Origin: Balanoglossus misakiensis | Taxonomy: Eukaryota; Animalia; Hemichordata | DNA: 64,000 nt | Reading direction: 5' to 3' | NCBI GenBank assembly: GCA_040954595.2 | Contig: CM082577.2 | Coordinates: 18,326,303-18,390,302 of the forward strand | Shown: positions 35,630-64,000 of the stretch, one piece after another | How the letters are laid out: the number at the start of each line of letters is the position of its first letter | How positions within the stretch are numbered: position 1 is the first letter of the stretch | Made by a program: the position numbers and the translations under genes | The notes under the pieces: generated by a model | Told to the model about the DNA's origin: nothing | Database searches by the model: none | Seen by the model: the letters and a program-made list of their open reading frames with translations, nothing else

Positions 35630-36781
35630 TTAACATAACAAGCGATTCATGTACACTAGCAGAGAGGAAAAAAGAAAATGGGAAGGCGACTTGGTAGTGG
35701 CTAACTGAGCCATTCGCTGGGAAACCGTCAAGCGTGTGGACAGGGGTATTTTGACGTAACGTTCATAGGCATTTGACCGCCAATCACCGTGAAGCTTGAT
35801 TAGGTCAGGTGGTACGCCTGCAGCGTGAGCCAGTGAGGCTCCCCCCCTGCGCAAACTGTGAGCAGAGTAGAGACTGCTGTCTTTGCCAACCTTCTTTAAT
35901 AATTTGCTGAGTGCAGATGAAAACGATGAATATGTAAGCGTAACAAGCTTCCCACCCTTGGGGTAAACAAAGGCTGGAGCATCTTTAGCCGATGTAACTG
36001 ATGCCAGCATGCGACGGAGTGCCGACACGGGGCACAAGGGGCTGCCTGGTAAAGCGGCTAACGGTATGAAAAGGGTGCGCTCATGGCACTGCAAGGTTTT
36101 GGACCAACGCACTGCAAGCATAACATGGCTATCTTTAACAACCAAATCCCTACGTGAGAGATGTCGCTTGCAGTCAAAGGAAGTCTTGGAAGGAGGAACC
36201 AGGTTTGACTTTCTGAGAAAGGCGAAAAAACCGATTAGAATGGCACACCAAACAACGAGTTGGAAAACATCACTAATGTCAATAACTGCTGCCATGTCCA
36301 ACAACATGGGAACTGTAATAGGCAACTTCTGAGTGGGCGAATGAACACTACTTTTACGAATGCCGGCCAGCGCTAACTTAAAGCTGAGGCACTCGAACCC
36401 CTCCAAGTTATAGCCGGTAAGAATGTGCAGTGTCTTAACCCCTGAAATATAATTGGAAATGGACACAGGGCTGCTAAAGGACCTGTTAAGGAACTGTGCG
36501 TAAAGTGCCAAGACTGTGGATGAAGCAGGGAGAGCTTGTAAGCCAAAATGGAGTGTGAAGCTAAGGAAGGAGCGAAACTGGGTATGCAAGTTGTCGAGAG
36601 TCCCCGGACGAAATGCTGCCAAACGAGAGCGCTTCACTTCTTGTCTGAGTAACTCTAGGTCCTGCTGAACATCTGTGGGAAGATTAGAATAAATCATTAA
36701 GAGTGAACAAGGACTCTGGAACAGGGGTTTCCTCGAGAGCACGTCCTCTGGTGAGATCAAAAAAGCAGTCTTGGTATGCAC
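35630..36781 (-). CDS. Tyrosine recombinase of the Ngaro element (true start probably near 36690)
   Basis: FFAFLRKSNL (R), WSKT (K), HSLRRGGA (HxxR), HGDWRSNAYERY (Y). The frame is open. Confidence 0.92.
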   Translation of the reverse strand: MHTKTAFLISPEDVLSRKPLFQSPCSLLMIYSNLPTDVQQDLELLRQEVKRSRLAAFRPGTLDNLHTQFRSFLSFTLHFGLQALPASSTVLALYAQFLNRSFSSPVSISNYISGVKTLHILTGYNLEGFECLSFKLALAGIRKSSVHSPTQKLPITVPMLLDMAAVIDISDVFQLVVWCAILIGFFAFLRKSNLVPPSKTSFDCKRHLSRRDLVVKDSHVMLAVRWSKTLQCHERTLFIPLAALPGSPLCPVSALRRMLASVTSAKDAPAFVYPKGGKLVTLTYSSFSSALSKLLKKVGKDSSLYSAHSLRRGGASLAHAAGVPPDLIKLHGDWRSNAYERYVKIPLSTRLTVSQRMAQLATTKSPSHFLFSSLLVYMNRLLC

Positions 36782-38648
36782 TGCCTAGGTGCCACCGGGA
36801 TAAGCAATCAGCGAGTTGATTCTGAGCGCCTGGTAAGTGCTGGGCTTTCAATTCAAACTGAAAGGATGCTGCAATAAACCAAAGTTCACGCGCCGCTGTC
36901 ATAAGGAAAGGGTCACGACCGCGACCAGCATTGAGAACCTTAACTGTGCTGGTATTGTCGCTGTACACCAAGATACGCAAGCCAGTCCATTGGCTCCCCC
37001 AAAGACGGGCCGCGACAACGACTGCGAGCATTTCCAAGCAGTGGATTGGGAGCCGTTTATGCAGAATAAGTTCTGGAAACGTTGAGTGGAAGTACTGCGA
37101 ACCGGAAAGTCCCCCGCAACCTGAAAGGCACGCGTCTGTGCAAACAATGCTGTTAGGAGCGGACCAAGTTAAGTCAGGCATGATAGAAATCCCATTGAAC
37201 TGCCTAATGAAAACAAGCCACCAATTAACATCTTTGTGAAACTGAGCATTTAAGTATATGTGGTGACTTGCGGACTCCACAGAGCGCAAGGTGTCCAGCA
37301 TGCGGCTAATGAAAAGACGGCCCGCGCGGATGCAGCCAGCAACAAAGGAAAGTTTGCCGATTAGAACTTGCAAGTCTCGGCGGGTGGCTTTCCTTCTGCC
37401 CGACCAATCAAGGAGCAGCTCAGTGAGCTCGGTCAGCCTGTCGTCTGTGACCTCCAATGTCATGGCTACTGTGTCAACCTGTATACCTAAGAAAGAGAGA
37501 CGTGTGGTCGGTGGAACCGCCTTACTGGTGGCTTCTTCGACACCCAATTCTTGCAGAAGTGACCGCAAGGCCATAAACGCAGGCTCTGAAAGTGCCGGTT
37601 TCTCGGCACCGCAAAAATCGTCCAAGAAATTAACTGCTCGAAAACCTAAATTGTTGTACATAGAAATAATAGTGTTAGTTGTGGCCTGGCATGCAAGCGC
37701 TGCCGAACGCAAACCAAAAGGCAGACGGAGGTCAATAAAAAGCCGACCCCGCCAAGTGTAGCCCAACAGGTGAAAGTCATGCAGGTCGACGGGTAACTGC
37801 CGGTACGCCCTGGGCAGATCAAGCTTGAAAAGGTGACACCCAGGACCCAGTTCCCTGATGAGAGCCACAAGTGAGTCAATATTTGGGTAACGAAGCTAAA
37901 AATGATGCCCCAGGAAAGTAGACTGAGAAATACCCGCGTTAACCGAAGTTACAGGGGGAAAGCTGAGGTCCATAATAGTACGTCTATCGGTGGACCCTTT
38001 CTTCGGCACAGAAGAGAGTGGGGATGTCGCCACGGGTAGTGAGAGGGAGTTGTAGTCAAAAGGACCAGCGGTTGCGCCTAGACTAACTTCAGTACAAACA
38101 AAGGAATCAATGTGCTGCGCAAAATGCAGGGCGGAACCGTGGTTGCGTCCGCTCGAAAGAGGAAACTGACTAGCGGTGAAATTGACAGGCCAGCCAAATT
38201 CCAGAAAGTCAATAAAAAGCGCACTGTGCTGATTGGGTAAACGTGCTCGCCAGGCGGGGATATTCAACGCTGATGGCACGGGAATGCGAACGCCCGCAAA
38301 GTTGGGCCTACCGGATGAAAAAACAATCTGATGCGTGTCGCGCAACCACTGCGGGGAAATACGGGCGCTTGGCGGCCAGAGGGGGATGCTGGGAGGGATC
38401 CACGCCGGTGTTTCTGGGGGGTTGAAACTACTGGTAGCCGCTGACTGGGAAAAAAAAGACTGGTACTGAAAGTCGTGTATACCCTGAAGTTCATGTGCTA
38501 ATGCAAGGGGAGTGGAAACAGATGGGGCAATTGCGAGCACGTACGTGCCATCAATATCAGGAGAATCCTGACAACAAACTACTGAATTCAAAAATACAGC
38601 GCTGTCAGCAGAAAGGTGACTACGGTCAAAACGTACACTATCCTGCAA
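36684..38648 (-). pseudogene. Ngaro RT-RNase H, broken by an in-frame TAG at 37896-37898
   Basis: IDFLEFGWP, KLDLPRAYRQ, LPFGLRSA, NFLDDF, TDACLSGCGG, CLEMLAV, SDN, LADCLSR. ORFs 37896-38648 and 36684-37868 are in the same frame. Confidence 0.9.
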
Positions 38649-38854
38649 AGGTACAAGTCTTCAAAAGTGAGAACATCACTGTACAAGTGGGCGCTAGGCA
38701 AACTATTAACATAACTGCGCGACTGAGAGGCAACAGAGCTACAAGGAATGGGTGGTGGTCTATCCAGACTAGTTTCATATAGCCTGGAATGTGGTGAGGG
38801 AGGAAACGAGACCGAAGGGCCAGAAAAGTCATCCCGTTTCCCCAAAGGCTGGAG

Positions 38855-40026
38855 TCATTCCTTGTTGCCCCCCTGCGTCTTTTCCCGAAATTCTTTCTCG
38901 TTATATGGACAATCGGCAGCGGCATGTTTCTTTTCTTGTTGCCTATAACGCAAACAGGCGGAACAAACATGTTTCTCCAAGATGCCTTCCACCATGTGAT
39001 CCTCAGCCTGAATACACTTGTGGATCTGAAAGGCGGAACAATACCTGGCACGACGGTTTTTCTTTGGCTTTGTGGCTGAGGTGGAAGTGCTCTGTGGAGG
39101 ATTTCTAACAAATCTAGTGTGGAGGTTATCAAAATCATCCTCCCAATTTAACAATCCTTGCTCCAAATATTGCAACACTACTGAGTGATATTTCCCAATT
39201 ATACAATTGTGCATCTATGACAATGTCTTGCAAATGAGTCAATCTATGCAAACTAGAGTCACTGCCAAACCCCATCCCTAAAATGATTTCGAGTTCACCG
39301 GCCACTAATTGTGGTAAGACAGTTCATCGTATGCCAAGGCCTCTGGCCTGTTTGGGTTTGGGTCGCGGACAAATTCATGTGGCCATGGAATGTACATCCG
39401 TACTCTGTCCGTTATAATGGCTTCCTCCTTGCGCCACTTTTCATGCGTTTACCTTTGGGAATAACATTCTGCAACGGGGATCGTCTGCTTTTGGCCTGTG
39501 TGCGAAGTTTGGTTCTGCCTTTCTTCGCTGCTCTTGTACCACGCTTGGTGTCCATATCATCGCTGCTGGAGCTGCTGCTTGCTTCGGATGCTGAAGTGTT
39601 GGACGAACCGCTCGATAACAAACGTTCGACGGAGTCCTGGAGAGCCGAGTCACGTCTAAGGTCGGCTAGAGTGGAACGAGGTTGCTCGGTCTTTTCCCGC
39701 TCACTAGTGGCTGTGACGTCATCGTTTTTAGGTTTCACAAACTTCATCACCTCGGAAATTTGGTGGAAAATCTCTCTTACTTGAGATGTCACAGAGTCCA
39801 ACTGCTGTTGCACTTTCGGGTCAGTCCCGGAACGCTTACTTGTAATTTTCTTGCGTGTCATTACGTTGTACATGTAAGCTGGCTGTTTTGGGCAGTTGCG
39901 CCGTCGGGCAACTGTATCCATTTCTGCTCGTTCTGCTACAGTTCCCGCCTCGAGTTCTGCGAAGGTATCTTCAACTTCTGATGTGGGCTGAGCCGATTCG
40001 GCCATTTCGGTGAAAATTAAAACCAA
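38855..40026 (-). pseudogene. Ngaro gag-like ORF1, frameshifted
   Basis: Segments 39412-40026 and 38855-39214 are linked by shifted-frame WPHEFV..YDELS..LVAGELEII. C-terminal Cys/His cluster YCSAFQ..C..H..HVCSAC..H..C. Confidence 0.7.
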
Positions 40027-40124
40027 GGAGAACTGAAGAGCTGTGGATACCGGTACCGGATCAGCAATATCAAAGTCCGAAAGCTTTTAAATATCTCAGT
40101 ATCTCAAAACCAGGCAGGAGCTTG

Positions 40125-47345: not shown

Positions 47346-48151
47346 TGCAGCAGTTCAACTTTAGCAAGTACCCACATGCGATTCCCCGTGTTAGACTAAT
47401 GGGATTTGGTTTGAGGAAAGAAATAACAAACAACAAACAGAACGAGAATTACAATAGAGCGAGAATTTGTGGTAATTTACGAGACTTCGTTCGGCATGCC
47501 TCAGAATCGGTACAATTTCCTTTGATTGGTGAAGAATCGCTTGAACTTGCGGGAAAAATGAACGTATCCACAGGATTCACTAACCATCTATCCTTCCCAG
47601 GAGGCAGTGGCATGAAACACTGTGCGACCGTTTGTGAGTAGCGAGCGATTAATGGTCGCAATGCGTGGCCGCGCAGTTCTAAAGTAATACTCGCCCTACA
47701 GGGGAGAATACTACTCGCGGTTGCACCGGCCGTGTATATATTACCTACACAAAAGCGGTCGATGCTTATACTAACTATGACTAAATACTTAACCCTTTGC
47801 TGCCCAGGGCACCCTCATGCGCCCGACATGCGCTGCTGTCCAGAGCACCCGTATCCGCCCGAGATTTCCTTCTTCCGGGTTTGGGAAATTCCATCCGGGA
47901 TAGCACGCAAAGTACCCGCCTTTTGATTATGATAATGTGGTGACGTCTGGTTTATATCCGGGACCTTACTTTGACGTCAATGAATATGTATGTTCCCATT
48001 GGATAAATTTGAATTACAATCGTTTGAAGTTGTTTGCCGCCTACGCGTCACGGAAAATTATCATAACCGCTGACCTCTGTAGTGTAAAAATATTCACGTC
48101 GTGTACACTTTCCACTTTAACCTTTTACACGACCTATATTAAACAACAACA

Positions 48152-49849
48152 ATGGATCCCGGCCGTGCTAATGCGGAAGTAATGAGGTTTCTTTTGGACG
48201 ACGACGACGATGAAGAATTTCTCGGTTTTCCAGCGGAGGATACGGCCAGCGACATCGAAATCCGCGAAATCAACGATGCGCTGCGACAAGTTCTCGAGCT
48301 GGAGAATGAGAACGACTTAGAAGTCCCGGAAGATCTGCGTAACATCCCGTGGTCGGCCGATCTAGAAAATTTTGATTTACCAACATTTCTCGTAGGCGAA
48401 TCAGGGCCAAACCACAACCTGGCGGCAGGTTCTCAGCCTCTTGATTATTTTTTTTTACTGATTCCGCCGTATTTTATACGACGCTTGGCAGAGGAGACCA
48501 ACCGTTACGCCGATCAAAAACAGCGCGCGACGGGCATCGACCGCTATTGGTATGACACAAAACCCGACGAAATCAAGGCGTTCATCGCGATCAATATTTT
48601 GATGGGAATACACCAGCTTCCCAACATCAACTTGTACTGGTCGACTGATGACAGGCTTCAGGTCCCGGGCATAACCAAAATTATGACCAAAAACCGTTAT
48701 AAGAAGTTGTGTCAATACTTTCACGTCAACGATAACGAAGCCGACCAGCCAGCTGAAAACCCTCACCGAGATCGCATGCATAAGATCCGCCCGCTCCTCG
48801 ACGTCGTCCAGCTCACATTCCCGGCAAACTATGTCCCCTTTCGCGAGATTTCCATCGATGAGGGAATGGTAAAATTCAAGGGGCATAGCTACATGATTCA
48901 GTATCTGCCAGCGAAACCAATCAAATGGGGGTTCAAGCTTTGGATCATCGCTTGCCCCCGTACCGGGTACTGCCTCAACCTCGATCCGTACACCGGGAAG
49001 AAAGGTGGTCAAGTCGCCCAGAAAGGTCTGGGATATTCGGTTATTTGGCAACTGTCGCACATGTACCACAACATGGGGCACGTTTTATTTTATGATAATT
49101 TTTTTAGTTCAGTCGGGTTAGCCCTCGATCTGCTAAAATCGGGTACGCTTTGCTGCAGTACAGTTCGGCCAAACCGAGTTGGATTTCCCGTCGATCTCCG
49201 GAATGTAAAACTCGATAGCAACGCGTCAAAAACTCGCCAGTTTGGGAAGCTGACGGCAACTGTGTGGCAGGATAAAAGACAAGTTACCACACTCCAGCCT
49301 GAGTGTGTAACAACAAGACGGCGAGCCGGAGAAGTGTCCTGTCCCAAGAGTATTGTTGACTACAACAAATATATGGGCGGTGTCGACCTTTCAGACCAAC
49401 TCGCGACCTACTATCCTTTGGGCGGAAAGCACTTCAAGTACTGGAAGTACCTGTTTTGGTCCATTCTAAACAGGGCAATCTGCAACGCCTGGATTTTGTA
49501 CAAGATTGCCAATATTCCAGCTCCAAGACGAAGATACCGCCAGCTGGATTTCCGCCTAGATCTGTGTACACAGTTGACAGCTGGATTCAGTGGTAGAAAG
49601 CGACCAGGGCCATCACCAGCTCCTGTCCTACTTCCAGCGTCGCTGAGTGCGGATAATTTTCCCGGCCACCAGTGCACAAAATTGGACACTTCCCGGCAAA
49701 AAAAGGGCTGTGTTCTTTGTGCTAAGCAAAAGAGGAAGACGCAGTCTGGCAGAGCTGTCCAAACAACGTGGATGTGCTGCAATTGCAGAGTAGCCCTTTG
49801 CAAAGTCGACTGCTTTGCAAAGTACCATGCCATCCAGTACCAGGCATAA
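48152..49849 (+). CDS. piggyBac transposase (PGBD4-like), 565 aa
   Basis: DDD triad SIDEGM, FYDNFF, GGVDLSDQ; KPIKWGFK; C-terminal Cys-rich domain CVLC...CCNCRVALCKVDCFAKYH. No stops. Confidence 0.95.
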   Translation: MDPGRANAEVMRFLLDDDDDEEFLGFPAEDTASDIEIREINDALRQVLELENENDLEVPEDLRNIPWSADLENFDLPTFLVGESGPNHNLAAGSQPLDYFFLLIPPYFIRRLAEETNRYADQKQRATGIDRYWYDTKPDEIKAFIAINILMGIHQLPNINLYWSTDDRLQVPGITKIMTKNRYKKLCQYFHVNDNEADQPAENPHRDRMHKIRPLLDVVQLTFPANYVPFREISIDEGMVKFKGHSYMIQYLPAKPIKWGFKLWIIACPRTGYCLNLDPYTGKKGGQVAQKGLGYSVIWQLSHMYHNMGHVLFYDNFFSSVGLALDLLKSGTLCCSTVRPNRVGFPVDLRNVKLDSNASKTRQFGKLTATVWQDKRQVTTLQPECVTTRRRAGEVSCPKSIVDYNKYMGGVDLSDQLATYYPLGGKHFKYWKYLFWSILNRAICNAWILYKIANIPAPRRRYRQLDFRLDLCTQLTAGFSGRKRPGPSPAPVLLPASLSADNFPGHQCTKLDTSRQKKGCVLCAKQKRKTQSGRAVQTTWMCCNCRVALCKVDCFAKYHAIQYQA

Positions 49850-50045
49850 AATGGCCCTTTGCTTTTCACGGCCAACAAACGGCCCTTTTCAGGGCCATCA
49901 CTAGAAGTCACACTACTGTAAAAAAAATGTGACCCAAGCCAAACGGCCCTTTTCAGGGCCAACAAATCCTCCAAAAAGAGAATACCGAAAAATAAAAATG
50001 TAAGCACCCACTCTCAACAACACAAACACACACAAACGTATACAG

Positions 50046-50046
<1 letters not shown>

Positions 50047-50092
<46 letters not shown>
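50047..50092 (+). repeat. (CA)n microsatellite in the piggyBac 3' region
   Basis: Direct observation. Confidence 0.95.
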
Positions 50093-50094
<2 letters not shown>

Positions 50095-50794
50095 GACAGA
50101 AAGAAGGAAATGAAACCTTTAACTTAATAGTAAAAAGAAAGAAATTACTGTTAATAATGTGAAAAACTGACAAAGAGACCTGTAATTTAGTTTTATTTAT
50201 TCTCATTCAAAACTAATTTCCTCTTCACCTGAAACAGAAAGTGTAAAATGCACAAAACCTGCTTTCCATGAACTATAGTTGAATGGAAACTTTCTGGACA
50301 CATCACATGCCACACATCATTGAAACGGGAATTTTCAGAACTGTAAAATAAATTTTACCTGCTACAGTCAATTCCCAACCATTTTTGAGCAAATTCTGGT
50401 AAAAACACACACCTAATTTTGATTGCACAATCTCACTAATTCAGTGAAAAGTTCTGGGCTCCACTATGCATTGTTATGCAAATGAGCTGGGCTGCAAAGG
50501 GTTAACTATCTTAAACGCTATATAAAGGTGAGACAGAACTATATGTGAAAGCTTATAAGGATATTACTTACGTCTTGATAGATATCAGGTACAATTCGGT
50601 CTATCGGATCTCCAGCTCGTCGGAACGGCGTGCTTTCCCCAGGTCCGCCCACACTGCTGTTGGCCTCATCCATTGGTGCTGCCCCTGTCAGTCAGATCTC
50701 CGTGCTCCGCCTTCCACGGTCCTGGCTGGCTGTCGCCCTGGGCAACCTACTCCGGCTGCCAGTCATCCGGGGGTCCAAATGTAATTCCACTACA

Positions 50795-50814
50795 CTCGTC
50801 CTTCTTTTCTTTTT
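50795..50814 (-). promoter_or_regulatory. Polypurine tract
   Basis: AAAAAGAAAAGAAGGACGAG directly followed by TGT on the minus strand. Confidence 0.75.
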
Positions 50815-51088
50815 GGGAGATCCTCCCTGGGGCTATATGTCGGGTAATGGGAAGCCTGAAACGGTGGGGTTCCCTGGAAACGTTCGCCGGGCTGGTCCTG
50901 AAAATAAAAAGATCTTGGGTGGCTTGCCCGCGGAGACGGGCACCAGAATACTCTCTGATATTAGATTCCAGCCAGGGTGGCCGGATTGGGTTTTGTGGTT
51001 GTTTGGCATGTATTTCCTCTGCCAGAAGCGGATGTTTGGGTAGGATCTTCCTCCGTCAGTGACGGATTTCACACTCTGTTTTGTTTCT

Positions 51089-53322
51089 TCAGATCTGGTA
51101 CAGACGGCGGGCGTTTTCGGCCGTCTGCGCCAACAGCTGGCGAGTAGAGGTACCTCGCAGTCTGGCTACCTCAAGTGCTACGTCCCCAAGGAAGGCTGGA
51201 GTATTCATCCTCTGGGACTCCCACACGCGTCTGCTGGGCGACTCGGTCTCCACTAAGATCCGGTCCTCCGAGATAGCCTGCATGGCTTCAATCTGTCGCT
51301 CATCAAACTGGCGGACGGCTGCCGAGAACCCAAAATAGGTCTCGGGGAAGTACCGCCGCCAGTCTCCCACGGTCTCCATACATCCTCGGAAATCCCGGAG
51401 GTGGATCTGCTGGCGCTCGTCGCAGTGCCTGGTCATGGTTAGTAGAGTCCAGGCTGCCGTGTGTCGGTCATACCTGTCGTTGGAGGTTCCCCGGGCGGTG
51501 ATGACTACTGGCTTCCTTCCCGGGTTCATGGTTAACAGGTCTTCGAAGACCCTATCTTGGCCTTCCCAGGTGGAGGGGTCTTCCGTCCGGTCAAGTCCGA
51601 TGTCCCCTAGTGCGGCCACGTCTGGGCGCCTCAGAAGATTGCCGAGGGTCTGGCGTTGATCCTTGGTCATGTATGGTGCCACTCGTGGGTTAACTCCAAG
51701 GGCTATTGGAAAATCTTTTTCCCCCGGCAGCGGGTCCGGGTACCGATCCGGCTCAGAGAATACTTGTAGCCCTCCGAGGAGCCGGATTCGATAGTCTGGA
51801 AGGACACCAACATCGTAGTCAGTGAGGTCTTGTGGAGTTGTTGGAGCGTCCTCCACCCTACATTTCTCGGCGCAGGCCTGAGGGTAGAAGCAGGCATCGA
51901 TTCCCCCGGGTGTGGATGGGTCCCGGGCTGCTGTTTCGGGTGGCTGTGTCCGGGTTGCTGCTGGTCTCCGGGGCGGTTGGATTCTCCAGAACTCGTCCTG
52001 ACGCGCTTGTGATACCCATCTGAGCAACACGCTCAGCACGCGCCAGTGGATGAGGATCGCTGGCGTGGTGGGGGGGTTCAGCGGGAACTTGTTTGGTACT
52101 TCCCACCCCTGAAACACACACAGGCGCTTCATCATAACGATGCTCTCGGGCGAGCACAGGGATTCCGAAGGGATTTTTCCGGGTCCACCCCTACGAATGA
52201 ACAGATCCAACAGGTCGGGTATCTCTTTCCCGGGACCACATAGCCAGTAGGTCAGCTTTTCCAAAGCCTCCACCGCGTCCCGCTCGCGGAATACCTCTGG
52301 CCTCTCAACAAACAGTTCGGGAAGGTGACGGTGAAATACATGTTTCTTCAACTTCCGTGTTGACATCCGGCATCCCGGGAATGGACATGGAGAGGGGCCA
52401 TACGAGTAGCGTGGACCAGGGGGTGGGGAGTTTCTTCGGGTCGGCCTGGTGCTCCTCCATCGGTGTTCCTCCATCGGTGTTCGGTTTGTCTGGGCGGTTC
52501 CGGCGTTGGGTACCGGATAGGTGAACGACACCTGGGGCTGAGGTCTCCCCAGCGCGAATGGGATGGTCGTTCGCGGGAAGGCGGGCGGTCCCGCCTCTCC
52601 TCTCTAGCACGACCCGGTCGAGGCGACCGGGTTGGGGATCTGGACCTAGTGGGGAATCCGAGAAATTCCCGGAGATCCCAGGGGATATCGATTTCCCCCA
52701 CCTCCGACATCTCCTCCGGCGCTATAGGCCGGATCAACGGCTGCAGCGGTAGCGTCTCCTGGCGTGGGGGTGGTGGCTCCTGCAGAAACGGTCGGCCACT
52801 TTCTGCTCTTGGGGGTGATCCGTGGGTGGGGGGTGGTTCTGGCCCCTCCAACACCTCCATCGCCTGGTCTTTGTCGCCACCGAGTACCTGTCTCTCCTGC
52901 TGTGGGTCCGGGAAGATGCTGAGGGTTTCTTCCTGGTCGTCAGCTGCGGTGGTGGTTCTGGGGAGCTCTTGCAAAGAAAGACTGCCGACGAACCCTCCCC
53001 GTACTCGGCCTAGGTTGAACTCCCGGGGGACTGTGGTTTTCAGGGCTGTGGTGCGACTCTTCATGGCTATGTCGGGCGCGGGCAGATGGGCGTTAACTTT
53101 TTCCTCTCCGTAGATCCGGATGGCCTCCTCCCGTGCGATGGACATCCACCCCACGTCCCCAATTACGGTGGCCACTTGGAAGTGCTCGTGGAGCATTTCG
53201 AACATGGTGTCCTCGTCCATGCCGAGGTCTCTCAACCGGGGGATCACACTGATGGGGTCCAAGAGTTTCCCCTTGCCACATCGGAAACGGATGTCCTCCA
53301 ATTGACGTTGATTTGAATCCAT
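51089..53322 (-). pseudogene. Accessory ORF (~739 aa when repaired): helical N-terminal domain, Pro/Arg-rich linker, C2H2-like finger, conserved helical domain, TatD-like amidohydrolase fold
   Basis: ORFs 52348-53322 and 51089-52531 join in frame if the 14-bp tandem duplication CCTCCATCGGTGTT (52454-52481) is removed. TatD-like motifs ALGDIGLD, KPVVITAR, YFGFS, RILVETESP, TAENARRLY. Confidence 0.85.
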
Positions 53323-53369
53323 TCTGGGGGGGGGGGCAAAAAGAAAAGAAAGAAAATTAACGGTTAGTG
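53323..53369 (-). promoter_or_regulatory. Splice acceptor immediately upstream of the accessory ORF
   Basis: CACTAAC branch point, ~30-nt polypyrimidine tract, then CAG|A ATG. Confidence 0.75.
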
Positions 53370-53434
53370 GGTCCTCGTCGGTAACGAGTCATAGTCCTAC
53401 CCGATGGCAATTTCCCCTTTTTCCCTCTGTTCCC

Positions 53435-56400
53435 TTACTCATCGGTTCCCTCCCCCACGCAGTTCGGACAGTGAAAGGGGTCTGTCGATTTGACCTGTTT
53501 TGGGGAGAGATTGACGCAGGTGCTGTGAAACCAGTCGTAACAGCTGTCACACTGGACCATCAGCTTCCCGGTGTCCGGCCCACGGCAGACACAGTATGTC
53601 TGCCCCCGGTCTTTGTCCTGCGTGTCAGGATCCCCACCCTTCAGGGGTAGTGACCTCTTGAATTTAACTATCCAGCTGGGCAGTTGCGCGTCCCTGCACA
53701 GCTTCATTCTGTCGTGGTTTGCGGTGGCCATGCGTCTCGGAAATTTCACCCGGTACAAGTATGGCGATAGTTTCGCTATCACTATTCCTGGTCCTTTCCA
53801 TGGTGGGCTTAGTTTTTTACACTTCCCTCTCACGGTCGCTGAGTCCAGAAGGTAGACGGGGTCTCCGACTTCATATGAACTGAGACGGGCCTTCAAGTCG
53901 TAATCTCGCTTCATTCTTTCCTGGGTGACAACAGTTTTTCCCGAGCGAGCTCATGGGCTTCCTTCATGGTGCTTCCCAGGTTGCTCGCATATTCTTCAGG
54001 GTCTTGGGCTGGCGCTGGTTTCCCGAAGACCAGGTCGGCCGGTTGGTTCACTTCCCGCCCCAGCATAAGGCGATTAGGTGTGAATCCGGTATTTCGGTTT
54101 ACGGAGGTCCGAATGGCTCCGGCGATTTGGGGTAGGAATTTGTCCCACTCGTTCTGTTTGCCCTGGACGAAACAGCGAACTGCATCCATGAGGGTCCGAT
54201 TTTGCCGTTCCACCTGGCCGTTCGCGGACGGGCGGTACGGCGTGGTCCTAGCCTTGTGTATTTGGAGCAATTCGCATACTGACTGGAACAGCTGACTTTC
54301 GAAATTACTGCCTCTGTCGGTGAATATCTCAAATGGACATCCGAATCGAGAAAAGAATTCCCCTACGGCTGCCGTAGCGGTCACCTCTGCCGTTTGGCTA
54401 GGTAGTGGAATGCACTCTACCCATTTGGTGAATTGGTCGACCATGACTAGGATATATTCGTTTTTTCGGGGTGTCCGGGGCAGTGGTCCAAGAAAGTCCA
54501 GATGTACCCTTTCCATTGGCGATCCCACGTGGTACCGGGTCAGGGGGCACCTCGCATGCCGCTGTGGTTTCTTGTGCTTGTTGCAATCGTTGCATGAGGC
54601 TACGAAGCTGCGGACATCATCTGCCATCCGATGCCAGTGGTACTTCATCTGGAGTCTGGCCAGCGTCCATTGCACGCCCTGGTGTCCTGCCGAGGGGATT
54701 GCGTGATTCAGTTCAATTACTTCCGATATCATTTTTCTGGGGATGACCAGTTTTCCTTCGCCCTCGTCCTCGGATTTCCTCCGGAGTATTGGCATCTTCG
54801 GGTCCACATAGTATATTTCTCGGTTTATCCAGGCATTTTTTGCGGCGGGGCTGAGTAGTGCCAATGCGCTCTCTGCGGGAGTTTGGCCAGTATTCAGCCA
54901 TTCCAGTATCGGCCGTAGATCGGCATCTTCCCGCTGTCGTCGGTATATGGTGTCCAGGGTTTCCCGCCACGGCGTCTCGATCTCTGGCGAGCTGCTCCTA
55001 GTCACCGTGCATATCTTGGGGTCCTCTTTTTCCGCCTGTGTATCTTCACCGGAGGTCGTGTCCTCTCCCCTGAAGTCTATTCCGATTGACTTTAGTATTT
55101 CGTCGAAATCGAATCCTTCCCCGGGGTCCTCCGGGGGGTCTGCGAGGTGGTCATTCGTCTCGTCGTCTTCGTTGCCTAGGTTTACCGCGCAGACGTCTTG
55201 TCTGATGTCTTTGGATGGTTGTGAGGCTAACGGTATTACTTCGTCTACCTTGGTCACGAAATCTCCCCAATTTCTGTGCGCTCGTTGGCAATAATCACAG
55301 CCGCCGCAGGGAAGTTCGTCCGGCGTAACGTTGTGACGGTAGTGTCGGCACTGCCCCTGCGGTTCGATTCGGGATAAGGCATCAGCGTTGAGGTGTTTGT
55401 TCTCAGGCCTATGCTGAACCGTCATGTTGTACTGGCTAAGTTCCTCCAACCATCGGGCCAATTGTCCTTGGGGTTCTTTAAACCCCAGCAACCAGGCCAG
55501 ACTGCTGTGGTCCGTCCGTATTATGAAATGGTTCCCCAGCAAGTAGTGTCGAAATAACCGGGTAAATCGTACTACCGCTAGGAGTTCTTTTCGGGTCGTA
55601 CAATACCTTGTTTGCTCGGGTGTTAGCGCGAAGCTGGCGTACGCGATTACTCGCTCCCCTCCATCCTGCACCTGGAGAAGTTCCGCTCCCACGGCAATGT
55701 CTGATGCATCCGTGTCCAATATGAACGGGTCTTTTGGGTTCGGTAATGTGAGTACCGGCGCTGATGTTAAGCGATCTTTTAACGCTTCGAAGGCCAGCTG
55801 TTGCTCTTCGCCCCACTTGAAAGGCTTTTTTCCCGTAACTGTGTACAGCGGGGCGGCCAACTTGGCATGATCCTTTATAAACGAGCGGTGATAGTTGGCT
55901 AAACCTGCGAAACGTTCCACCTCCTTGGTGTTTTTTGGCGTCGGCCAGTTGCGCACTGCGTCAACGGAACGCGGGTCCAGTCCTATTGTTCCTTTACGGA
56001 CAATCCGCCCCAGGAATTCCACTTCCGTCTGAAACAGCTCACACTTGCGGGGGCGTAGTTTCAACCTGTATTCTCGTATCCGGGTGAACACGTCCCGCAG
56101 ATTCTGGAGATGGTCAGCAAAGTCCGCCCCAAGTACCATGATGTCGTCTAAGAATGCAAATACTACCTCCCATGTCAGCCCACGCAGCACCAGATTCATG
56201 GCTCGCGAGTATGTGGCGGGGGCGTTGCACAGGCCGAAGGGCATGCGGGCGAATTCAAACAGTCCGTACTTTGTGGTAAAGGCGGTCTTCTTGCGGTCAT
56301 CTTTGTCCACTTGTATCTGCCAGTACGCTGAATTGGCATCTAGTTTCGAGAATCATTCATTCCCGGCCAGCGTGTCCATGCAGTCTTCGATCAGCGACAG

Positions 56401-57972
56401 GGGGAATACGTCTTTACGGGTCACGTTTTTCAGCGCCCGATAGTCAACGCACCAGCGGACGGTCCCGTCCCTTTTCCTTACCAATACCGGTGCCGATGCC
56501 CATTCCGATGTTGAGGGTTGGATTACCCCTGACCGTAACATTTTCTTGAGATGGGCTTCCTCCTCCCCCGCGAAACGCAGTGGGGTTCGGCGCATCCTCT
56601 GTTTCACTGGTCGTGCATCCCCCGTATCGATACCGTGCGCAAGGGCGGTGAAGTTCCCCAGGTCGTATTCATTTGCAGCAAAGACATCCTGGAACTCCAT
56701 AAGTAGCTCTTTCATTTCCTGTGACTGGTTCTCCGTCAGATTGGCTGCTGATTTCTCGGCCAATTCTCTCAAGTGGTCTGGGAGCTCGTCTTCGCCATGC
56801 GGTGAAGCTTCCGTGAGTAGTTCAACCTCGCTGACTGTGCCTGTGGCGATTTCGATGTCTTTGGTTAATGTCCGAAGAAGCTTTCCCCCGACTGCTGTTG
56901 CCACTACTGTTCCCGGCGGTATTGTGACGTTGTCATCGGTCGGGTTTATTAAACAGATGATTGGGGGTTGCCCCTTTTTACAGAATGTCCGGGGCATAAT
57001 GAGGTCACCTAGTTTCACGGGCTCCACTATGTAGTTGGGCATGTCCATGTCGATTGTCCCTGTCACCCTGGTCACGGAGTTCGGAGACAGGATAGTGCGT
57101 GGAGTGACTGATATGTTGGCCACGTGCGTCACAGCGGTCTGGTCCCCTTGCAGCAACGGGAGCCGCTGTTCTCCCACCTGGAGGGTGTTTTCTCTCATGT
57201 CGAGGATGACCTGCTTGGATCGAAGTTGGTCTATTCCCAACAGCATGGTGTCGCCTATGGGGCCCACATATATATTTTCTCGAAAGGCAGTGCTCCCCAA
57301 CTTCAGGTTCACTGGTCCAATTTTGAATCCTCTCATGGACGAGTCTCTTCCGGCTAGTTGTACTTTGACATCGTGTATTATAGGCGGTTTCGGCTCTAGG
57401 GTGTCGTACAGCCTGTCGGAAATTATTGTTATTTCTGCGGCCGTGTCTAGGACGGCGAGAACCTCGGTCCCCTCGACTTCTACGGTGACTTTGTACATTG
57501 AACTTGGGGAGATTTTACGGATGGTCACGCTGGGGGGAGCGGTGGTGTCGCTTTGGTGGCTAAGCTCGATGGACATTGCCGGTTGGGGCTGCTGATTGCC
57601 GTCACTGGCTGGCTCGTTCTCCGAGTTTTCGATCAGCACCTCTTCCCGGTCGACGAGATATAACAGCTCCCTCTCTGAATTCTCTTCCAGCGCTTCAGTC
57701 ATCACTGCCCCGAGTTCCTCAAATTGTCCAAGTTCGCCATCGGTTGCTTCTCCGTCCGAGCCATCGCTGTCTTCTGATTCGGAATCAGTTCCCGGTGGAC
57801 ATACCGGGGGTAAGTTGGCATTGCTGGCAGACGGATTACGGCTCCCGGTGGCTCTGTCTGTAATGTTATTTTCGTCTTCCTCCACTGGCTCCACATCCGC
57901 GTTCCTCATAAGGCCAATTCCGGTGACTTGGGTCGGGCTTAGGCTTCTGTGACCGACCCGTACCGGTTTAAC
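53435..57972 (-). pseudogene. Gypsy pol: protease, RT, RNase H, integrase, PHD finger
   Basis: LDTAAEITII, MPFGLCNAP, FLDD, DTDASD, HH-CC integrase finger, HLDFLGP/TDRG/VERQNR, WKGP, YCVC..CDSC..WFH..C..CPNC. In-frame TGA at 56353-56355 (Trp expected) and a frameshift near 53928. Confidence 0.95.
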
Positions 57973-59357
57973 TGGCATTGAAAGACACGCGTTTCTGTGG
58001 GGGTTCTGGCTTGGTGTCCGTTGACAGACGCGGACAGTCCTTTTTGAAGTGGCCTTCCTGACCACAGTGGTAACATCCGCGGCTCCTGGGGGATGGTGAT
58101 CGGCTGGTTGTACGGGGTCGGTTGCCCCAGTTCATACGAGTTAGCTGATTAGTGAGCATTTCTACAGCAGTGCCCAGTCCGGACATCTGCGTTTCCACCC
58201 GGGCTAGGTGTGACTCCATCCGTGACAGGCGTCTATCCATAACAGGACTGCCCTCACTGGGTCGGACCTTGGGTTCGGTTGAGGGTGTGTCGCGCTTCTG
58301 TCGTTGGGGGGTGGATGCTGACTGTACTCGAGCTATCTCCTCGGCTTCTGAATCAGAACTGAGTCGGCGCACTTCGCGTTTTGGTGAGCGGCCTCCGAAT
58401 ATCTCTTTGTTGTTGTACTGGTACCAGCGTATCTGGTCGATGGCTTTCTCCATGGTCTGGGGGCGCTGTGTGGCTGCATTCAATCCAGCCTCTCTGTCGG
58501 CACAGCCCTGGCAGACCTTAATGATCGCTTGCCTAATCATCGCTTCCCCATCGCCATCGGGATAAGCTTGTGCTGCCAGGATGAGAACTCTGTCTGCCCA
58601 CTCTTCCAGGGATTCTCCTGTGTTTTGTCGGGATTGATTGAACTTCATTTGAGCGGCCTCTGGGAGTTCACAGTACCCAAACCTTTTCTCCATTTTTCGG
58701 ATTACCTCTTCGTAGGTGATGTTTTTCCCGGGGCCGGCGAGTGTTGTGTAAAACATACTGGCCCTTCCGTCGAGGCACCAGCAAAGTTGGCTTTTCCGTT
58801 CCCGGGAGGTCCACGCTTCGATATCCGCGTACTGCGTGAACTTGGTATAAAATGCCTGTCAATTTCCTCCCCCATTGTATACTAACGTCTTCGGCAGGTT
58901 GACAGATAGTTGACGGTGGACAGGGTGATCTGTTTTCCTGCTTGGGGTGTCGACATTTTTAGGGAGAGTGGATGTCTGCGTAGTTGTCACTGCTGAGGCC
59001 CCAGTTCGGGCGTCCGGGCTCTGCGTCCCCAGTGCTGGTCCGGGATCAGACTGATATTGTGGTGCTGCCCCCCGATAGGGTGGTGGGGGGGGGTATAAGG
59101 TAGCGACTGTCGGGACTGTGGCTGCTGCCGGAAGTATGGACCCCAGTTGTACTGGTTGGCATCCACCTGTTGCTGTTGTTGTGGTTGGGGATAGGCGCCC
59201 CAATTGTATCCGCTGACGTCCAGCTGTTGTTGTTGTTGTTGAGGGTGTGGTCCCCAACGGTACTTGCTGGCGTCTGGTTGTTGTTGCTGGGGTTGTGGCG
59301 GATATGAGCCCCAGCTGTTTTTAACGTCTGTTTCCTTTTGACTCTGGCCATACTGGG
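57968..59357 (-). pseudogene. Gypsy gag, disrupted
   Basis: Gln-rich repeats, capsid-like RQNTGESLEEWADRV, knuckle CYHCGQEGHFKKDC. In-frame TGA at 58859-58861 and at least one frameshift. Confidence 0.85.
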
Positions 59358-59538
59358 TGTGTGTACTGAGACATTTGATTACTTTGTGAATGGCGCCCTC
59401 TGTGTCAAGAGGTGGGAGGTGGGTAGCCTCGTTTTGGAAAAAAGACGCCATCTTGTTTTGGGGTGTTATTGTCGATGTCGAGCATGGTCTGATGTGAATA
59501 AAGAGTCCATAGAAATACAGTTGTGTGTAGACGTTTCA
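59358..59538 (+). repeat. Putative 5' LTR of the second Gypsy
   Basis: Ends in CA just before the PBS and contains AATAAA and CGCCATCTT. The TG start at ~59358 is inferred from where the opposite-strand gag stops looking gag-like. Confidence 0.6.
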
Positions 59539-59539
59539 A

Positions 59540-59553
59540 TGGTGGCAGCGGTG
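59540..59553 (+). promoter_or_regulatory. Primer binding site, tRNA-Leu type
   Basis: TGGTGGCAGCGGTG is complementary to the 3' end of metazoan tRNA-Leu(AAG/TAG). It lies 1 nt after the LTR-terminal CA. Confidence 0.8.
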
Positions 59554-59559
59554 TAAACG

Positions 59560-60417
59560 ATGGCCAAAAAAGTAGAATATTTCACCGGGGAGGAGAGAGG
59601 AGAACTGGAACCTTGGTTGGATAGATTCGATGCTATCATTGAGGCAGAAGGTAAAGAGAACAAAGCTGCAGCAATAATACGCACGTGTTTGAAAGGAGAT
59701 GCAGCGACCGTAATCCAATTGCTGTCGGTAGATGACAAAAAGGACATAGATAAGATAAAGGTAGAGTTGAGAAAACATTTTGGATTGAAGAGAGATGAAT
59801 TGTCAGCACAGCGGGAATTTCATTGCCGTAAACTGGAATCCGGGGAGAGCATTGGGAAGTTCGTGCGTTCCCTAAGAAAGCTTGCAATTGAAGGATTTCC
59901 CAAATGCGTTGGTAGCGGATTAGACTCAATTATCAAAGGTCAGTTTATCGTCGGTCTTCCTAGGGAATTGGGCGACCAGTTATCTGTTGCCTTACACTAC
60001 AAAGTTGCCGAAGCGGAGTTAAGTGAGGTCGTGGATTTTGCCACGAACTGGCAAAAATATCAGACAAAGGAGAACACTATTTCTGTTGACAACGTCATGC
60101 AAGTAGGGGAGGTCGATACAACCGTAAGTAGTGTGGTACGCGAGGCTGTTGAATCTGCAATTTCAAGCTTAGAGCCAACAATTTCAGCAATGGTTAATGC
60201 GCAAGTTAATCGGGTGTACGGAAACCAGAGCAACCAACAAAGAGGTAGTGGTAGAACCAGTCGCTCATCAACAAGGCCTGCACAGACAACTGGTAAGTGT
60301 TTTGAATGTGGACGGTTCGGCCATTTTAGAAGAAACTGTCCTAATCGGTTCCAGTGTTTCAAGTGTCATCGTTACGGACATAAGGCAGCCAATTGTCCTG
60401 AATTTTACCCAAACTAG
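59560..60417 (+). CDS. Gypsy gag, 285 aa
   Basis: WLDRFD, GESIGKFVRSLRKLA, QFIVGL and two CCHC knuckles. Confidence 0.93.
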   Translation: MAKKVEYFTGEERGELEPWLDRFDAIIEAEGKENKAAAIIRTCLKGDAATVIQLLSVDDKKDIDKIKVELRKHFGLKRDELSAQREFHCRKLESGESIGKFVRSLRKLAIEGFPKCVGSGLDSIIKGQFIVGLPRELGDQLSVALHYKVAEAELSEVVDFATNWQKYQTKENTISVDNVMQVGEVDTTVSSVVREAVESAISSLEPTISAMVNAQVNRVYGNQSNQQRGSGRTSRSSTRPAQTTGKCFECGRFGHFRRNCPNRFQCFKCHRYGHKAANCPEFYPN

Positions 60418-60451
60418 TGGGAGGTCGGGGCGCTGGCCAGCCCTTGACCTC
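60408..60451 (+). promoter_or_regulatory. -1 ribosomal frameshift signal (gag-pol)
   Basis: C CCA AAC heptamer in the gag frame, a 6-nt spacer and the stem GAGGTCGGGG...CCTTGACCTC. pol is in the -1 frame. Confidence 0.8.
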
Positions 60452-63400
60452 TGTTGAGAAGACGGCCATGGATGGTCTGTGTACTGATGATCTGGTGAGT
60501 GGCAATGTTCGGGGGACCCCGGAACTGCCTGTCCGGGGCCTTAGAGCCTGGGGATTGCCACATGACCAGAATCAGTATCATAGTCAACAAACTGTTACCG
60601 AACAACAAATGAACAACGATGAACTCTCACCCCAAATATTAACCACAATGACTTCACGCACATGCGGCGACCAATATAGGACTACGGGTATGATAAATGG
60701 AGTTGAGACGCCCATATTCGTAGATAGTGGTTCACAAATTACCATAGTCAGAAGTGATCTACCAGCCATAAACGGGTTGCCACTGTATCCTGTGAATATT
60801 CAGCCAGAAGCAGTTAATGGTACACCCGTATGCTTTGATGGCCAGGTACAAGTCGATCTTACTGTTCAAAATTTTGTCATTGGTCCAACATGGGTGTATG
60901 TAATGTCTCCAAAGCTCATGCGTAATGAATTCTTGATGGGAACGGATGTTATGGAAAAACTGGGAAGCATGGAAGTTGATTTTGTAAAGAAAACTGTGAC
61001 TTTCAAAGGACTGACACAACCTAATACTTACCTCAACAAACCTGTAAATAACAAGATGAACTTGAAACCACAGTGTTGCCGTGTGACATTACTACAACGA
61101 GCTGTTATACCACCTAGACATGAACAAATGTGTCATGTACTTGTCGCAGCTATACCGGGACAACAAGGACTCATTGAAGGTAGTGATCAGCTACTTGAGA
61201 AAAAACACGTCGCTTGTGCTGCCTCACTTAACACTTTGGATAAGGACAGAACAACCTGGGTTAGATTATGCAACCCAAATCCTATATCTGTTAAATTGTA
61301 CAGGGGATCCAGTATTGCCGAGTTCACGCCTGATGTTGGCCAACCCACAGTAATTGAACAAGTATGTGTTGAGAGCGACACACCTAAGCCAGAAAGTAAA
61401 CAGGACCATGAAACTATTGATTCTTTGATAGAAAGAACAGATGTGAACCAGTCACAAAAAAATGAAGTTCATAAACTTGTTGAGAGTTTTGAGGATGTGT
61501 TTTCATGGAAAGGTGAATTTGGAAGAACTCATATTATAGAACACAAGATACATACTGGTATTGCACCACCACTTAGATCAGGTGCTAGGAGAACGGGTTA
61601 CCACGAGAGGGAGAAAGTCGACAAAATGGTGACTGAGCTATTGGAAAAGGATGTTATTGAGGAGAGTTCCAGTCCTTGGGCTAGCCCAATTGTCCTTGTA
61701 CCCAAGAAAGATGGGTCCTTACGATTTTGCATTGACTTTCGTCGATTGAATTCGGTAACTAAGGATGATGCATTTCCCTTACCGCGTATTGACGATGCCA
61801 TAGACTGTCTTGGAGGGAGTAAATGGTTTCCCACGTTAGATATGGCTAGTGGCTACTGGCAAGTAGGTATGGATAAAGAATCTAGGGAGAAGACAGCATT
61901 TATATGTCACAAAGGACTATATCAGTTTAAAGTCATGCCATTTGGACTTAAGAAGCACCAGCTACATTTCAAAGACTCATGTCGTCCATTTTCAGTCCAG
62001 AGATGTGGCATGTTCTACTTATATATCTGGATGACATCTTGATTTTTTCATCAACATTCGAGCAGCACTTGCAACGAATAGAGCTGGTATTCAGAAAATT
62101 GCGTGAGGCAGGACTTAAGCTACAGCCACGAAAGTGTCATTTCTTTCAAACTGAGATTGAGTATCTTGGCCAGCTTGTAACTCGTCATGGGGTGTCACCC
62201 AGTCAAAGAATAGTCAGTGCTGTTGCAGAGTTTCCCACACCTACTTCAGTAACAGAGCTTCGCAGATTCATAGGACTTGCCTCGTATTATAGGAGGTTCA
62301 TAGCAGGATTTTCAACTATTGCAGCCCCGTTACACAAGTTGACTTCAAAGGGTGAGGTATTCATTTGGACAACAGATTACCAACAAGCATTCAGTGAACT
62401 GAAAACTAAGCTGTCAAGTGCTCCAGTTTTAGCATACCCTAACTTTGATGTACCATTTTCGCTGGTAACTGATGCCAGTGGGGTTGGAGTTGGTGCTGTT
62501 CTTGAGCAAACAGTGAGTGGTGTAACCCGACCAATAGCCTATGCTAGCTCAATTCTCACGAAAGCGCAACGCAATTATTCAGCGACAGAGCGTGAGTGTT
62601 ATGCGGTGGTCTGGGCGATTGACAAGTTTCGGAGTTACCTCTACGGAACTAGATTCAACATAATTACGGACCACAGATCATTAACTTTCCTCAAGTCAGT
62701 GAAGGAGCCAAGGGGCAGATTGGCACGGTGGCAGTCTGAACTGCAAGTCTATGACTATGAGATATTACACAGACCAGGCAAAGCCATACCACATGCTGAT
62801 GCACTTTCACGTGCCCCATTGATCGCAGTTACTACTGTTCAAGGGAAGTGGTCTTTTGACGAGTTGAAAGCGCTGCAAGAAACAGACCCAGTTATAAACA
62901 GAGTGCGTGACTTGGTTCGATTGAAACAACTCTGTACACCTGGTGATGGAAAACGAGTAAAGGAGTTAATGCTGCGTGCAAGAGGTCTTCATATTGACAT
63001 TGGTACAGGGCTTCTGTGCTGTCGATACTATGTTGGGAGGAGAGAATGTATACAGGTAATTTTCCCAGACTCTCATGCTTCTGAGGTTCTGCCAGTGGTA
63101 CATGATCAGGAGGGTCACTTGGGAATCAAACGCACATTAGCCAAACTAAAGAAGTCGTTCTATTGGCCGGAGATGAGACTTAGAGTACAGGAGTGGTGTC
63201 GCAGCTGCATACAGTGTAATCAGAACAAGTTGCAACTGAGAGGAAAAGCCCCATTGCAACGTATGCCTGAACCAACTCGACCATTTCAATGGGTCAGCAC
63301 TGATGTATTTGGACCCATCCCAGCCACCAAGAAAGGAAATCGCTACATTGTAACCATAAATGATGGCTTTAGTAAATTTGTTGTAGCTAAAGCAATACCC

Positions 63401-64000
63401 AATCAAGAAAGTTCTACCATAGCAGAAATATTCATCAATGATTGGTGTTTGTTGTTTGGTCCACCAGAGACATTACACAGTGATCAGGGACGAAATTTCG
63501 AAATTAATCTCCTGTCTGAGGTGTGCAGAATGTTCAACACATCAAAAACAAGAACATCAAGTTACCACCCATCTGGAAATGGACAAACAGAACATTTCAA
63601 CCTTACTTTGGCTGACATGTTAAAGAACTATGTTAACGAGTGTCAAGACAATTGGGATGACCATCTACCAAAAGTCATCCACACCTATAACACGAGTGAA
63701 CATGATGCTACCGGGCATACACCGTATTTCTTACTGTACGGTCAGGAGGTTAGAACTGCATTGCAGCCAGTACCCACAGACACAGTCAATTCAAGAGGTT
63801 TGTGTACAGCCCGGGACAGGGTCAAAGATCATTTTGACAAACTCACCAAGGCCAGAAAACTGGTGTATGATAGACTGGCTAAATTGAGAGACAGACGTTG
63901 TGAGAAGTCAAAGATAAACAGCCGATTCTGTAAATACAATGTTGGTGACAAAGTTATGGTTGCTAACAATGCCAGAAGGAAGGGACGTTCACCTAAACTC
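60414..64000 (+). pseudogene. Gypsy pol (PR-RT-RH-IN) with a 1-nt deletion near 61952; runs off the window
   Basis: FVDSGSQITI, LDMASGYWQ, MPFGLK then shifted APATFQRLM, YLDD, VTDASGVG, HDQEGHLG..CIQC, TDVFGP, HSDQG. Confidence 0.92.

Follow-up and report, generated by a model that had tools for sequence, protein, structure and literature searches.

A Gypsy-type LTR retrotransposon in the genome of Balanoglossus misakiensis carries a third gene behind pol, and the product of this gene is modelled as a complete TatD TIM barrel in which every metal-site position is substituted. The element lies on the minus strand of a 64,000-nucleotide stretch of DNA, referred to here as the window, to which all coordinates refer unless a locus is named. 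The favoured explanation, with a probability of roughly 0.7, is that the window holds a decayed copy from a Gypsy clade whose third gene (ORF3) encodes a soluble accessory protein, and that the barrel of this copy is predicted to bind rather than to cut. Within this explanation, TatD as cargo of the element and the pseudo-enzyme state of the barrel are both highly probable, and a specific role of ORF3 on the element's own cDNA or RNA is proposed with considerable reserve.

The element shows the order typical of Ty3/Gypsy (Metaviridae) retrotransposons, with gag followed by protease, reverse transcriptase (RT), RNase H and integrase, and with a polypurine tract (PPT) followed by a 3' LTR that starts with TG. 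The gag region (57968..59315) encodes a PNMA/Retrotrans_gag capsid-like segment and a CCHC knuckle; it is fragmented, and its 5' end is truncated by a second element. pol (53435..57980) ends in a C-terminal PHD finger (about 53459-53593) and a TAA stop at 53437-53435, and its reading frame contains a single in-frame stop codon and shifts once. The PPT (50795..50815) is directly followed by TGTAGT, the beginning of the first part of the 3' LTR (50502..50794), which is placed by its position behind the PPT; the second part (47389..47788) has an estimated end, and the LTR as a whole was recognised by PPT and TG alone, without a paired 5' LTR. Between the two parts, at a TTAA within the LTR, sits a piggyBac-type DNA transposon on the plus strand (47793..50501) with an open 568-aa transposase frame (Pfam DDE_Tnp_1_7, E 4e-80). 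The element nested in gag is a second, unrelated Gypsy element in the opposite orientation (59316..64000, plus strand), which exits the window; it belongs to another lineage (RT 47% identical) and starts with a putative LTR of about 220 bp (59316-59538) and a PBS-like TGG at 59540. Because it breaks gag at about 59316, the 5' LTR of the TatD-bearing element lies outside the window. The stop and frame change in pol, the broken gag and the piggyBac-split 3' LTR indicate that this copy is dead. In an intact clade member (locus L015, 611-3985), gag starts with a helix-hairpin-helix match (HHH_3, E 0.0016, below cut-off), and the matching part is lost in the window through the cut in gag.

The first-pass annotation had placed a same-strand reading frame between the pol stop and the PPT and had treated it as a single gene. 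The frame is present, with its ATG at 53322 and its stop at 51089, and is split into two frames (52348-53388 and 51089-52603), the downstream one remaining open between 52603 and the stop. Near 52455-52482, a low-complexity linker contains a perfect 14-bp tandem repeat, and the two frames were analysed separately. The N-terminal part (52483..53322) comprises a weakly conserved N-domain (about 53020-53271) and a Pro/Arg-rich linker, beyond which, near 52455-52482, the frame breaks. That both frames belong to one gene is borne out by a 130-residue N-terminal profile built from 17 related ORF3s, for which the upstream frame is the sole match in the window's six-frame translation (E 9e-4), and by the relative P0011, which aligns to both frames. 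Related intact ORF3s are mostly 690-1100 aa long.

The C-terminal open frame (51089..52444) contains three conserved units. The first is a putative zinc finger (52325..52387), reported earlier as C2H2-like and found here in the form C-x4-C-x9-H-x4-H; it is almost invariant in the family, with the two cysteines kept in 94/95 and 93/95 and the two histidines in 94/99 and 102/104 of the aligned relatives among the matches listed, and would bind zinc. The second is the conserved helical domain that the annotation had noted, an all-helical, family-specific segment with an HWR motif between finger and barrel (51983..52324). It has no match in the Pfam scan; structure searches with the whole model were dominated by barrel matches, and the Atlas search returned only unnamed clusters, at 0.90-0.91. 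The third is the TatD barrel (51092..51910), complete and substituted at all seven metal-site positions, which makes it a predicted pseudo-nuclease.

The identity of the barrel is supported by both profile and structural comparisons. A TatD profile match, chosen beforehand as a test on which the assignment could fail, was obtained far above the Pfam cut-off: the downstream frame matches TatD_DNase (PF01026) with E 4.7e-23 and 82.3 bits against a cut-off of 27, and it also matches solved TatD proteins by sequence. With the TIGR00010 model (NCBIfam) it scores 68 bits, below the cut-off of 206. An AlphaFold2 model of 51092-52444, computed from a 103-row alignment, reaches a mean pLDDT of 90.9; an earlier fold from a 3-row alignment (pLDDT 55) was set aside. 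Residues 179-451 of the model superimpose on residues 1-256 of E. coli YcfH (1yix) with Z 29.2 and an rmsd of 2.3 Å over 248 residues, and the comparison with TATDN3 gives Z 26.2. In the structure search, nine TatD entries score Z 25-29 and the following entries at most 18, with Foldseek concordant. By this model, ORF3 contains a complete TatD TIM barrel. The full barrel claimed in the first-pass annotation stands as a fold, and two of the motifs quoted for it, GDIGLD and LVETESP, proved to be altered metal-binding motifs, not intact ones.

A gene located between pol and LTR in a single copy could be a host TatD gene or retrocopy that lies beside the element, or was transduced once, by chance. 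This reading draws on the public labels of the relatives, which are recorded as TatD, YcfH-like, TATDN2 or uncharacterised host genes; it is refuted by linkage from both sides, by enclosure between LTRs, by a single RT clade and by congruent trees, and is considered highly improbable. From the TatD side, 46 metagenome loci were found via family-specific motifs. Integrase or the PHD tail lies upstream on the same strand in 22 of the 27 loci with at least 1 kb of upstream DNA, in 19/20 with at least 1.5 kb and in 14/14 with at least 2.5 kb, and pol occurs on the opposite strand at none of the TatD-selected loci. The exception among the 20, L055, lacks pol and is the weakest match, without a TatD match of its own; at L033, only a protease piece is found upstream. 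From the other side, 16 loci were picked by integrase alone, and 11 of them match through the PHD finger. All ten of these with at least 2.6 kb downstream carry finger and TatD, so that copies of the same RT family keep ORF3 wherever this could be tested; in the eleventh, L061, the contig stops 158 bp past the integrase match. The other five matches comprise two weak bacterial ones and three more distant elements without TatD, two of which have just 2 and 1195 bp downstream. The third distant element, L072, is a Gypsy element without PHD or TatD, and its ORF3 (8652-9791) is of another kind, with zinc fingers of the C2H2 type.

Enclosure and phylogeny lead to the same result. In the window the PPT (50815-50795) lies downstream of ORF3, not upstream, and terminal repeats enclose gag, pol and ORF3 in L068 (216 bp, 97%) and L070 (94 bp, 99%). 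Three open genes are present in the relatives L015, L030, L044, L045, L060, L062, L065 and L068. In an RT tree of 20 rows, 15 TatD carriers and L061 form a single branch (SH-aLRT 99), the trees being quick ones with no bootstrap. Across 24 elements, nine of the ten strongly supported splits among integrases are also present in the TatD tree, and eight of nine in the reverse direction, with no strong conflict, and integrase and TatD distances correlate over 14 elements (Mantel rho 0.63). Since the same record prefix recurs among many loci, the number of independent hosts is smaller than the number of loci. A Mytilus gene model labelled 'tatD' (P0197) is joined to a retroelement protease, which also speaks against a chance host gene. 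The proposal that a Gypsy lineage adopted TatD as stable cargo is upheld by these results. As a variant, locus L021 (1-2700) has pol fused to ORF3, a single open frame running through the C-terminus of integrase, PHD, finger and TatD.

At a limit of E 1e-30, a search with the family profile gave 305 clusters, 150 of them among the matches listed; within these listed matches, the finger/helical domain is found in 117 of 152 aligned rows. Named members come from Ruditapes, Pinctada, Mercenaria, Mytilus, Saccostrea, Pecten, Ostrea, Elysia, Ptychodera, Lingula and Lytechinus, and thus represent bivalves together with single genera of gastropods, brachiopods, sea urchins and hemichordates. The closest among the matches listed is the Ptychodera protein, 35% identical over 469 residues. 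Mean identity is 37% for the ORF3/TatD domains and about 60-63% for integrase. A pol fusion is absent from the 58 longest of 151 family proteins in a Pfam scan. Scans of viral contigs gave no family member, and one scan yielded ordinary prokaryote-type TatD only, which served as outgroup. Six family proteins among the matches listed carry a doubled finger/helical domain. In Ostrea edulis, P0013/P0241 combines a degenerate TatD with two copies of this domain and may have been domesticated by the host.

The possibility that the element resides in bacteria was considered and rejected. Loci L060-L073, Gypsy elements of complete appearance, are found in bacterial bins (Sedimenticola, SUP05), and some family proteins are named Candidatus Thiodiazotropha TatD hydrolases, yet these loci have gag and pol, fall in one retroelement clade with the window element and likely represent host DNA within symbiont bins. 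The capture itself appears to have drawn on a eukaryotic gene. The family and two host-like proteins separate from 13 bacterial TatDs (SH-aLRT 97), and on the family profile a crab protein recorded as 'uncharacterized' (P0228), which we take to be a TATDN2, reaches 185 bits where YcfH reaches 127. TATDN1 and TATDN3, scored on a related profile, reach 64 and 76 bits, below YcfH. These sequence comparisons suggest a host TATDN2-like gene as the likely donor, a suggestion that hinges on one protein, P0228. The long N-terminus described for TATDN2 (PMC10085689) agrees with this view of P0228.

Where dS is measurable, the TatD domains of the relatives are under purifying selection. Three pairs give dN/dS of about 0.12, 0.19 and 0.33, and a near-identical fourth pair is uninformative; L031/L046 show dN 0.22 and dS 1.83, and L033/L038 show pN 0.14 with saturated pS. 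Since dS is saturated in every pair with the window, selection in the window lineage was judged by a test on conserved columns. Seven metal-site positions, HxH and the other Glu/His/His/Asp sites, were fixed before counting. The window copy keeps none of the seven. Among the matches listed, 105 of 130 relatives with full site coverage (21 rows dropped for gaps) are canonical at all seven, and 12 of 130 are degenerate, with four sites or fewer; degenerate barrels require eight state changes on the family tree. When a barrel column counts as conserved if at least 85% of 137 relatives among the matches listed agree, there are 36 such columns; the window retains 28, and the eight lost columns are the seven metal sites and the Asp two residues past HxH. 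Retention is thus 28/29 at conserved columns outside the metal site against 0/7 within it (Fisher p about 1e-6). The RT and integrase of the window retain 114/118 and 117/123 conserved columns, like other elements, and decay after insertion therefore fails to explain the loss of the site.

These data also bear on another reading, in which the TatD of the clade is an active accessory nuclease that the window lineage ceased to need, the window barrel being a structural remnant behind a finger/helical domain that is still needed. It is favoured by the long terminal branch of the window TatD (1.2-1.5, against 0.3-0.35 for the window integrase) and by the canonical metal sites at all ten integrase-selected loci, an unbiased sample. 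The 46 TatD-selected loci are biased to intact motifs; of the 42 context-bearing loci with full coverage, 39 are canonical and none has four sites or fewer, which leaves the window as the sole degenerate TatD with demonstrated element context. The reading sits poorly with a barrel that is full length, has an open frame and keeps 28/29 non-catalytic columns, given that a dispensable C-terminal domain is removable by one stop codon; in addition, the seven site changes cost at least 10 nucleotide differences over 21 positions. A mere remnant is accordingly judged unlikely, and the window barrel is predicted from its sequence to be a pseudo-nuclease rather than the product of simple decay. Its net charge of -7, against a family median of -1, does not favour improved nucleic-acid binding. 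Class II TatDs have the HxH motif, and metal-site mutations in TATDN3 reduce activity, whereas in TATDN1 one such mutation was without effect and another increased activity (PMC10085689). Because two of the seven swaps exchange acid for acid and because of these TATDN1 results (PMC10085689), inactivity of the window barrel stays a prediction. With all seven metal residues lost, a catalytic role in cDNA processing could apply to the relatives only, and not to the window copy.

The position of ORF3 raises the question of an envelope gene. In errantiviruses and retroviruses, env lies between pol and the 3' LTR, with a splice acceptor shortly past the pol stop. ORF3 shares this slot, and a predicted acceptor (CTAAC, pyrimidine tract, CAG) lies at 53324..53367 on the minus strand and ends one base ahead of the ORF3 ATG. 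At a strict threshold, an acceptor after the pol stop is present in 12/22 elements against 33/584 control windows, with shuffles giving a mean of 1.4 and a maximum of 5 in 500 runs; at a loose threshold the figures are 17/22 and 143/584, and most of the acceptors have an ATG no more than 10 bases away. L021, where pol and ORF3 share a frame, is left out of this count. The signal is weaker at integrase-selected loci, where 5/10 pass the loose threshold within 150 nt (control 143/584). On these sequence signals, ORF3 is likely expressed in an env-like manner from a spliced subgenomic message. An env-like entry protein would fit both slot and acceptor, and is nonetheless very improbable: ORF3 has a soluble enzyme fold, its profile scans contain no fusion-glycoprotein match, and its maximum 19-residue hydropathy is 0.8 and 1.1 in the two window frames and 1.0-1.75 in 17 relatives, the scan of the window frames giving no evident transmembrane or hydrophobic segment. 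The fusion glycoprotein and transmembrane anchor that mark env-bearing errantiviruses are thus absent from ORF3 in these scans. The PPT at 50799-50815 and the pyrimidine tract of the acceptor at 53337-53353, which flank ORF3, are complementary over 17 nt (94%); this may be chance between low-complexity tracts.

The proposed mechanism begins with a TatD of the HxH type (Class II) that was captured once, long ago, its most likely source being a TATDN2-like gene of a eukaryote. An env-like spliced subgenomic message would then supply a soluble accessory protein. In most members, by analogy with TATDN3 and YcfH, this protein would act as a 3'-5' exonuclease or AP endonuclease on single-stranded products of the element's own reverse transcription, which it would trim or remove, and intact members could also cut abasic nucleic acid arising in the element's cycle. 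The protein of the window lineage would hold and shield these substrates, or else a partner protein, without cleavage. The main rival to this own-nucleic-acid role is counter-defence, a possible but rather doubtful alternative in which the targets cut by intact members would be silencing RNAs of the host or DNA that stimulates immunity, and the pseudo-enzymes would act as decoys, aimed at a host restriction factor or at partners of host TATDN2. It is consistent with the much faster evolution of ORF3 than of integrase (mean identity 37% against 63%) and with the recurrence of degenerate barrels (12/130 among the matches listed, in eight state changes), although domesticated host genes may account for some of these 12 proteins. 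The rotifer-element paper also mentions nuclease derivatives without activity in piRNA biogenesis (PMC5408684).

The window contains further repeats and mobile sequences. Positions 1-22000 are occupied by satellite arrays with units of 237-239 bp in both orientations. Helix-turn-helix and integrase-core frames at 22742-24246 on the plus strand (rva_4, E 8e-70) likely represent a DNA transposon. At 29364-31080 on the minus strand, two frames resemble pieces of a HECT ligase by eye, and the one that was scanned has no Pfam match. At 35630-40086, also on the minus strand, an RT frame (RVT_1, E 3e-5, below cut-off) is followed by a frame that resembles a tyrosine recombinase by eye and has no Pfam match; together they probably form a DIRS/Ngaro-type element.

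The closest parallel in the literature searched comes from rotifers, whose elements have a DEDDy exonuclease as ORF3. In the bdelloid rotifer LTR retrotransposons Juno and Vesta, ORF3 encodes a DEDDy 3'-5' exonuclease or a GDSL esterase, and such ORF3s are typically expressed from spliced messages (PMC5408684). The shared features are a Gypsy-type element and an enzymatic, non-env ORF3 behind pol without a membrane segment; the Balanoglossus element differs in having a TatD TIM barrel in place of an RNase D-like DEDDy fold, in its added finger and helical domains, in its spread over several invertebrate phyla and in the loss of catalytic residues in this copy (PMC5408684). Furthermore, ORF3 and pol descend together here, whereas the ORF3s of Juno and Vesta have been exchanged between element classes, and the sections of that paper considered here make no mention of TatD (PMC5408684). 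In the excerpts used from other sources, PHD fingers occur on Ginger1 transposases (PMC2836005), the accessory domains named are a chromodomain and a DnaQ-like exonuclease (PMC6338049), and TATDN2 appears only as a label in the legend of a Hox-cluster figure (PMC6962438). Class II TatDs (YcfH, TATDN2/TATDN3) have the same barrel, and intact family members share their HxH and metal-site residues; unlike them, the proteins described here are retroelement-encoded and multi-domain, with a finger and a helical domain, and score below the TIGR00010 cut-off, the window copy also lacking the metal site. A description of TatD in an LTR element was not found in the literature searched, a search outside which lay Repbase, Dfam, GyDB, supplements and subscription journals.

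TatD represents a new kind of accessory gene for LTR retrotransposons, in which a repair-type nuclease fold has become a fixed and long-lasting third gene. A broader scenario, advanced only tentatively, combines an ancient TATDN2-type capture spanning molluscs, brachiopods, echinoderms and hemichordates with a binding-centred function in counter-defence or cDNA shielding, the recurrent emergence of pseudo-nucleases and a retrotransposon origin of most extra 'TatD' genes in these animals. By implication, many gene models of bivalves, brachiopods, echinoderms and hemichordates that are labelled TatD, YcfH-like or TATDN2 would be retroelement genes, as would some from symbiont bins, which affects claims that a gene family has expanded or came from bacteria. 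Intact members and a member that has kept the fold and lost the site form a natural pair that bears on the role of non-env ORF3 proteins.
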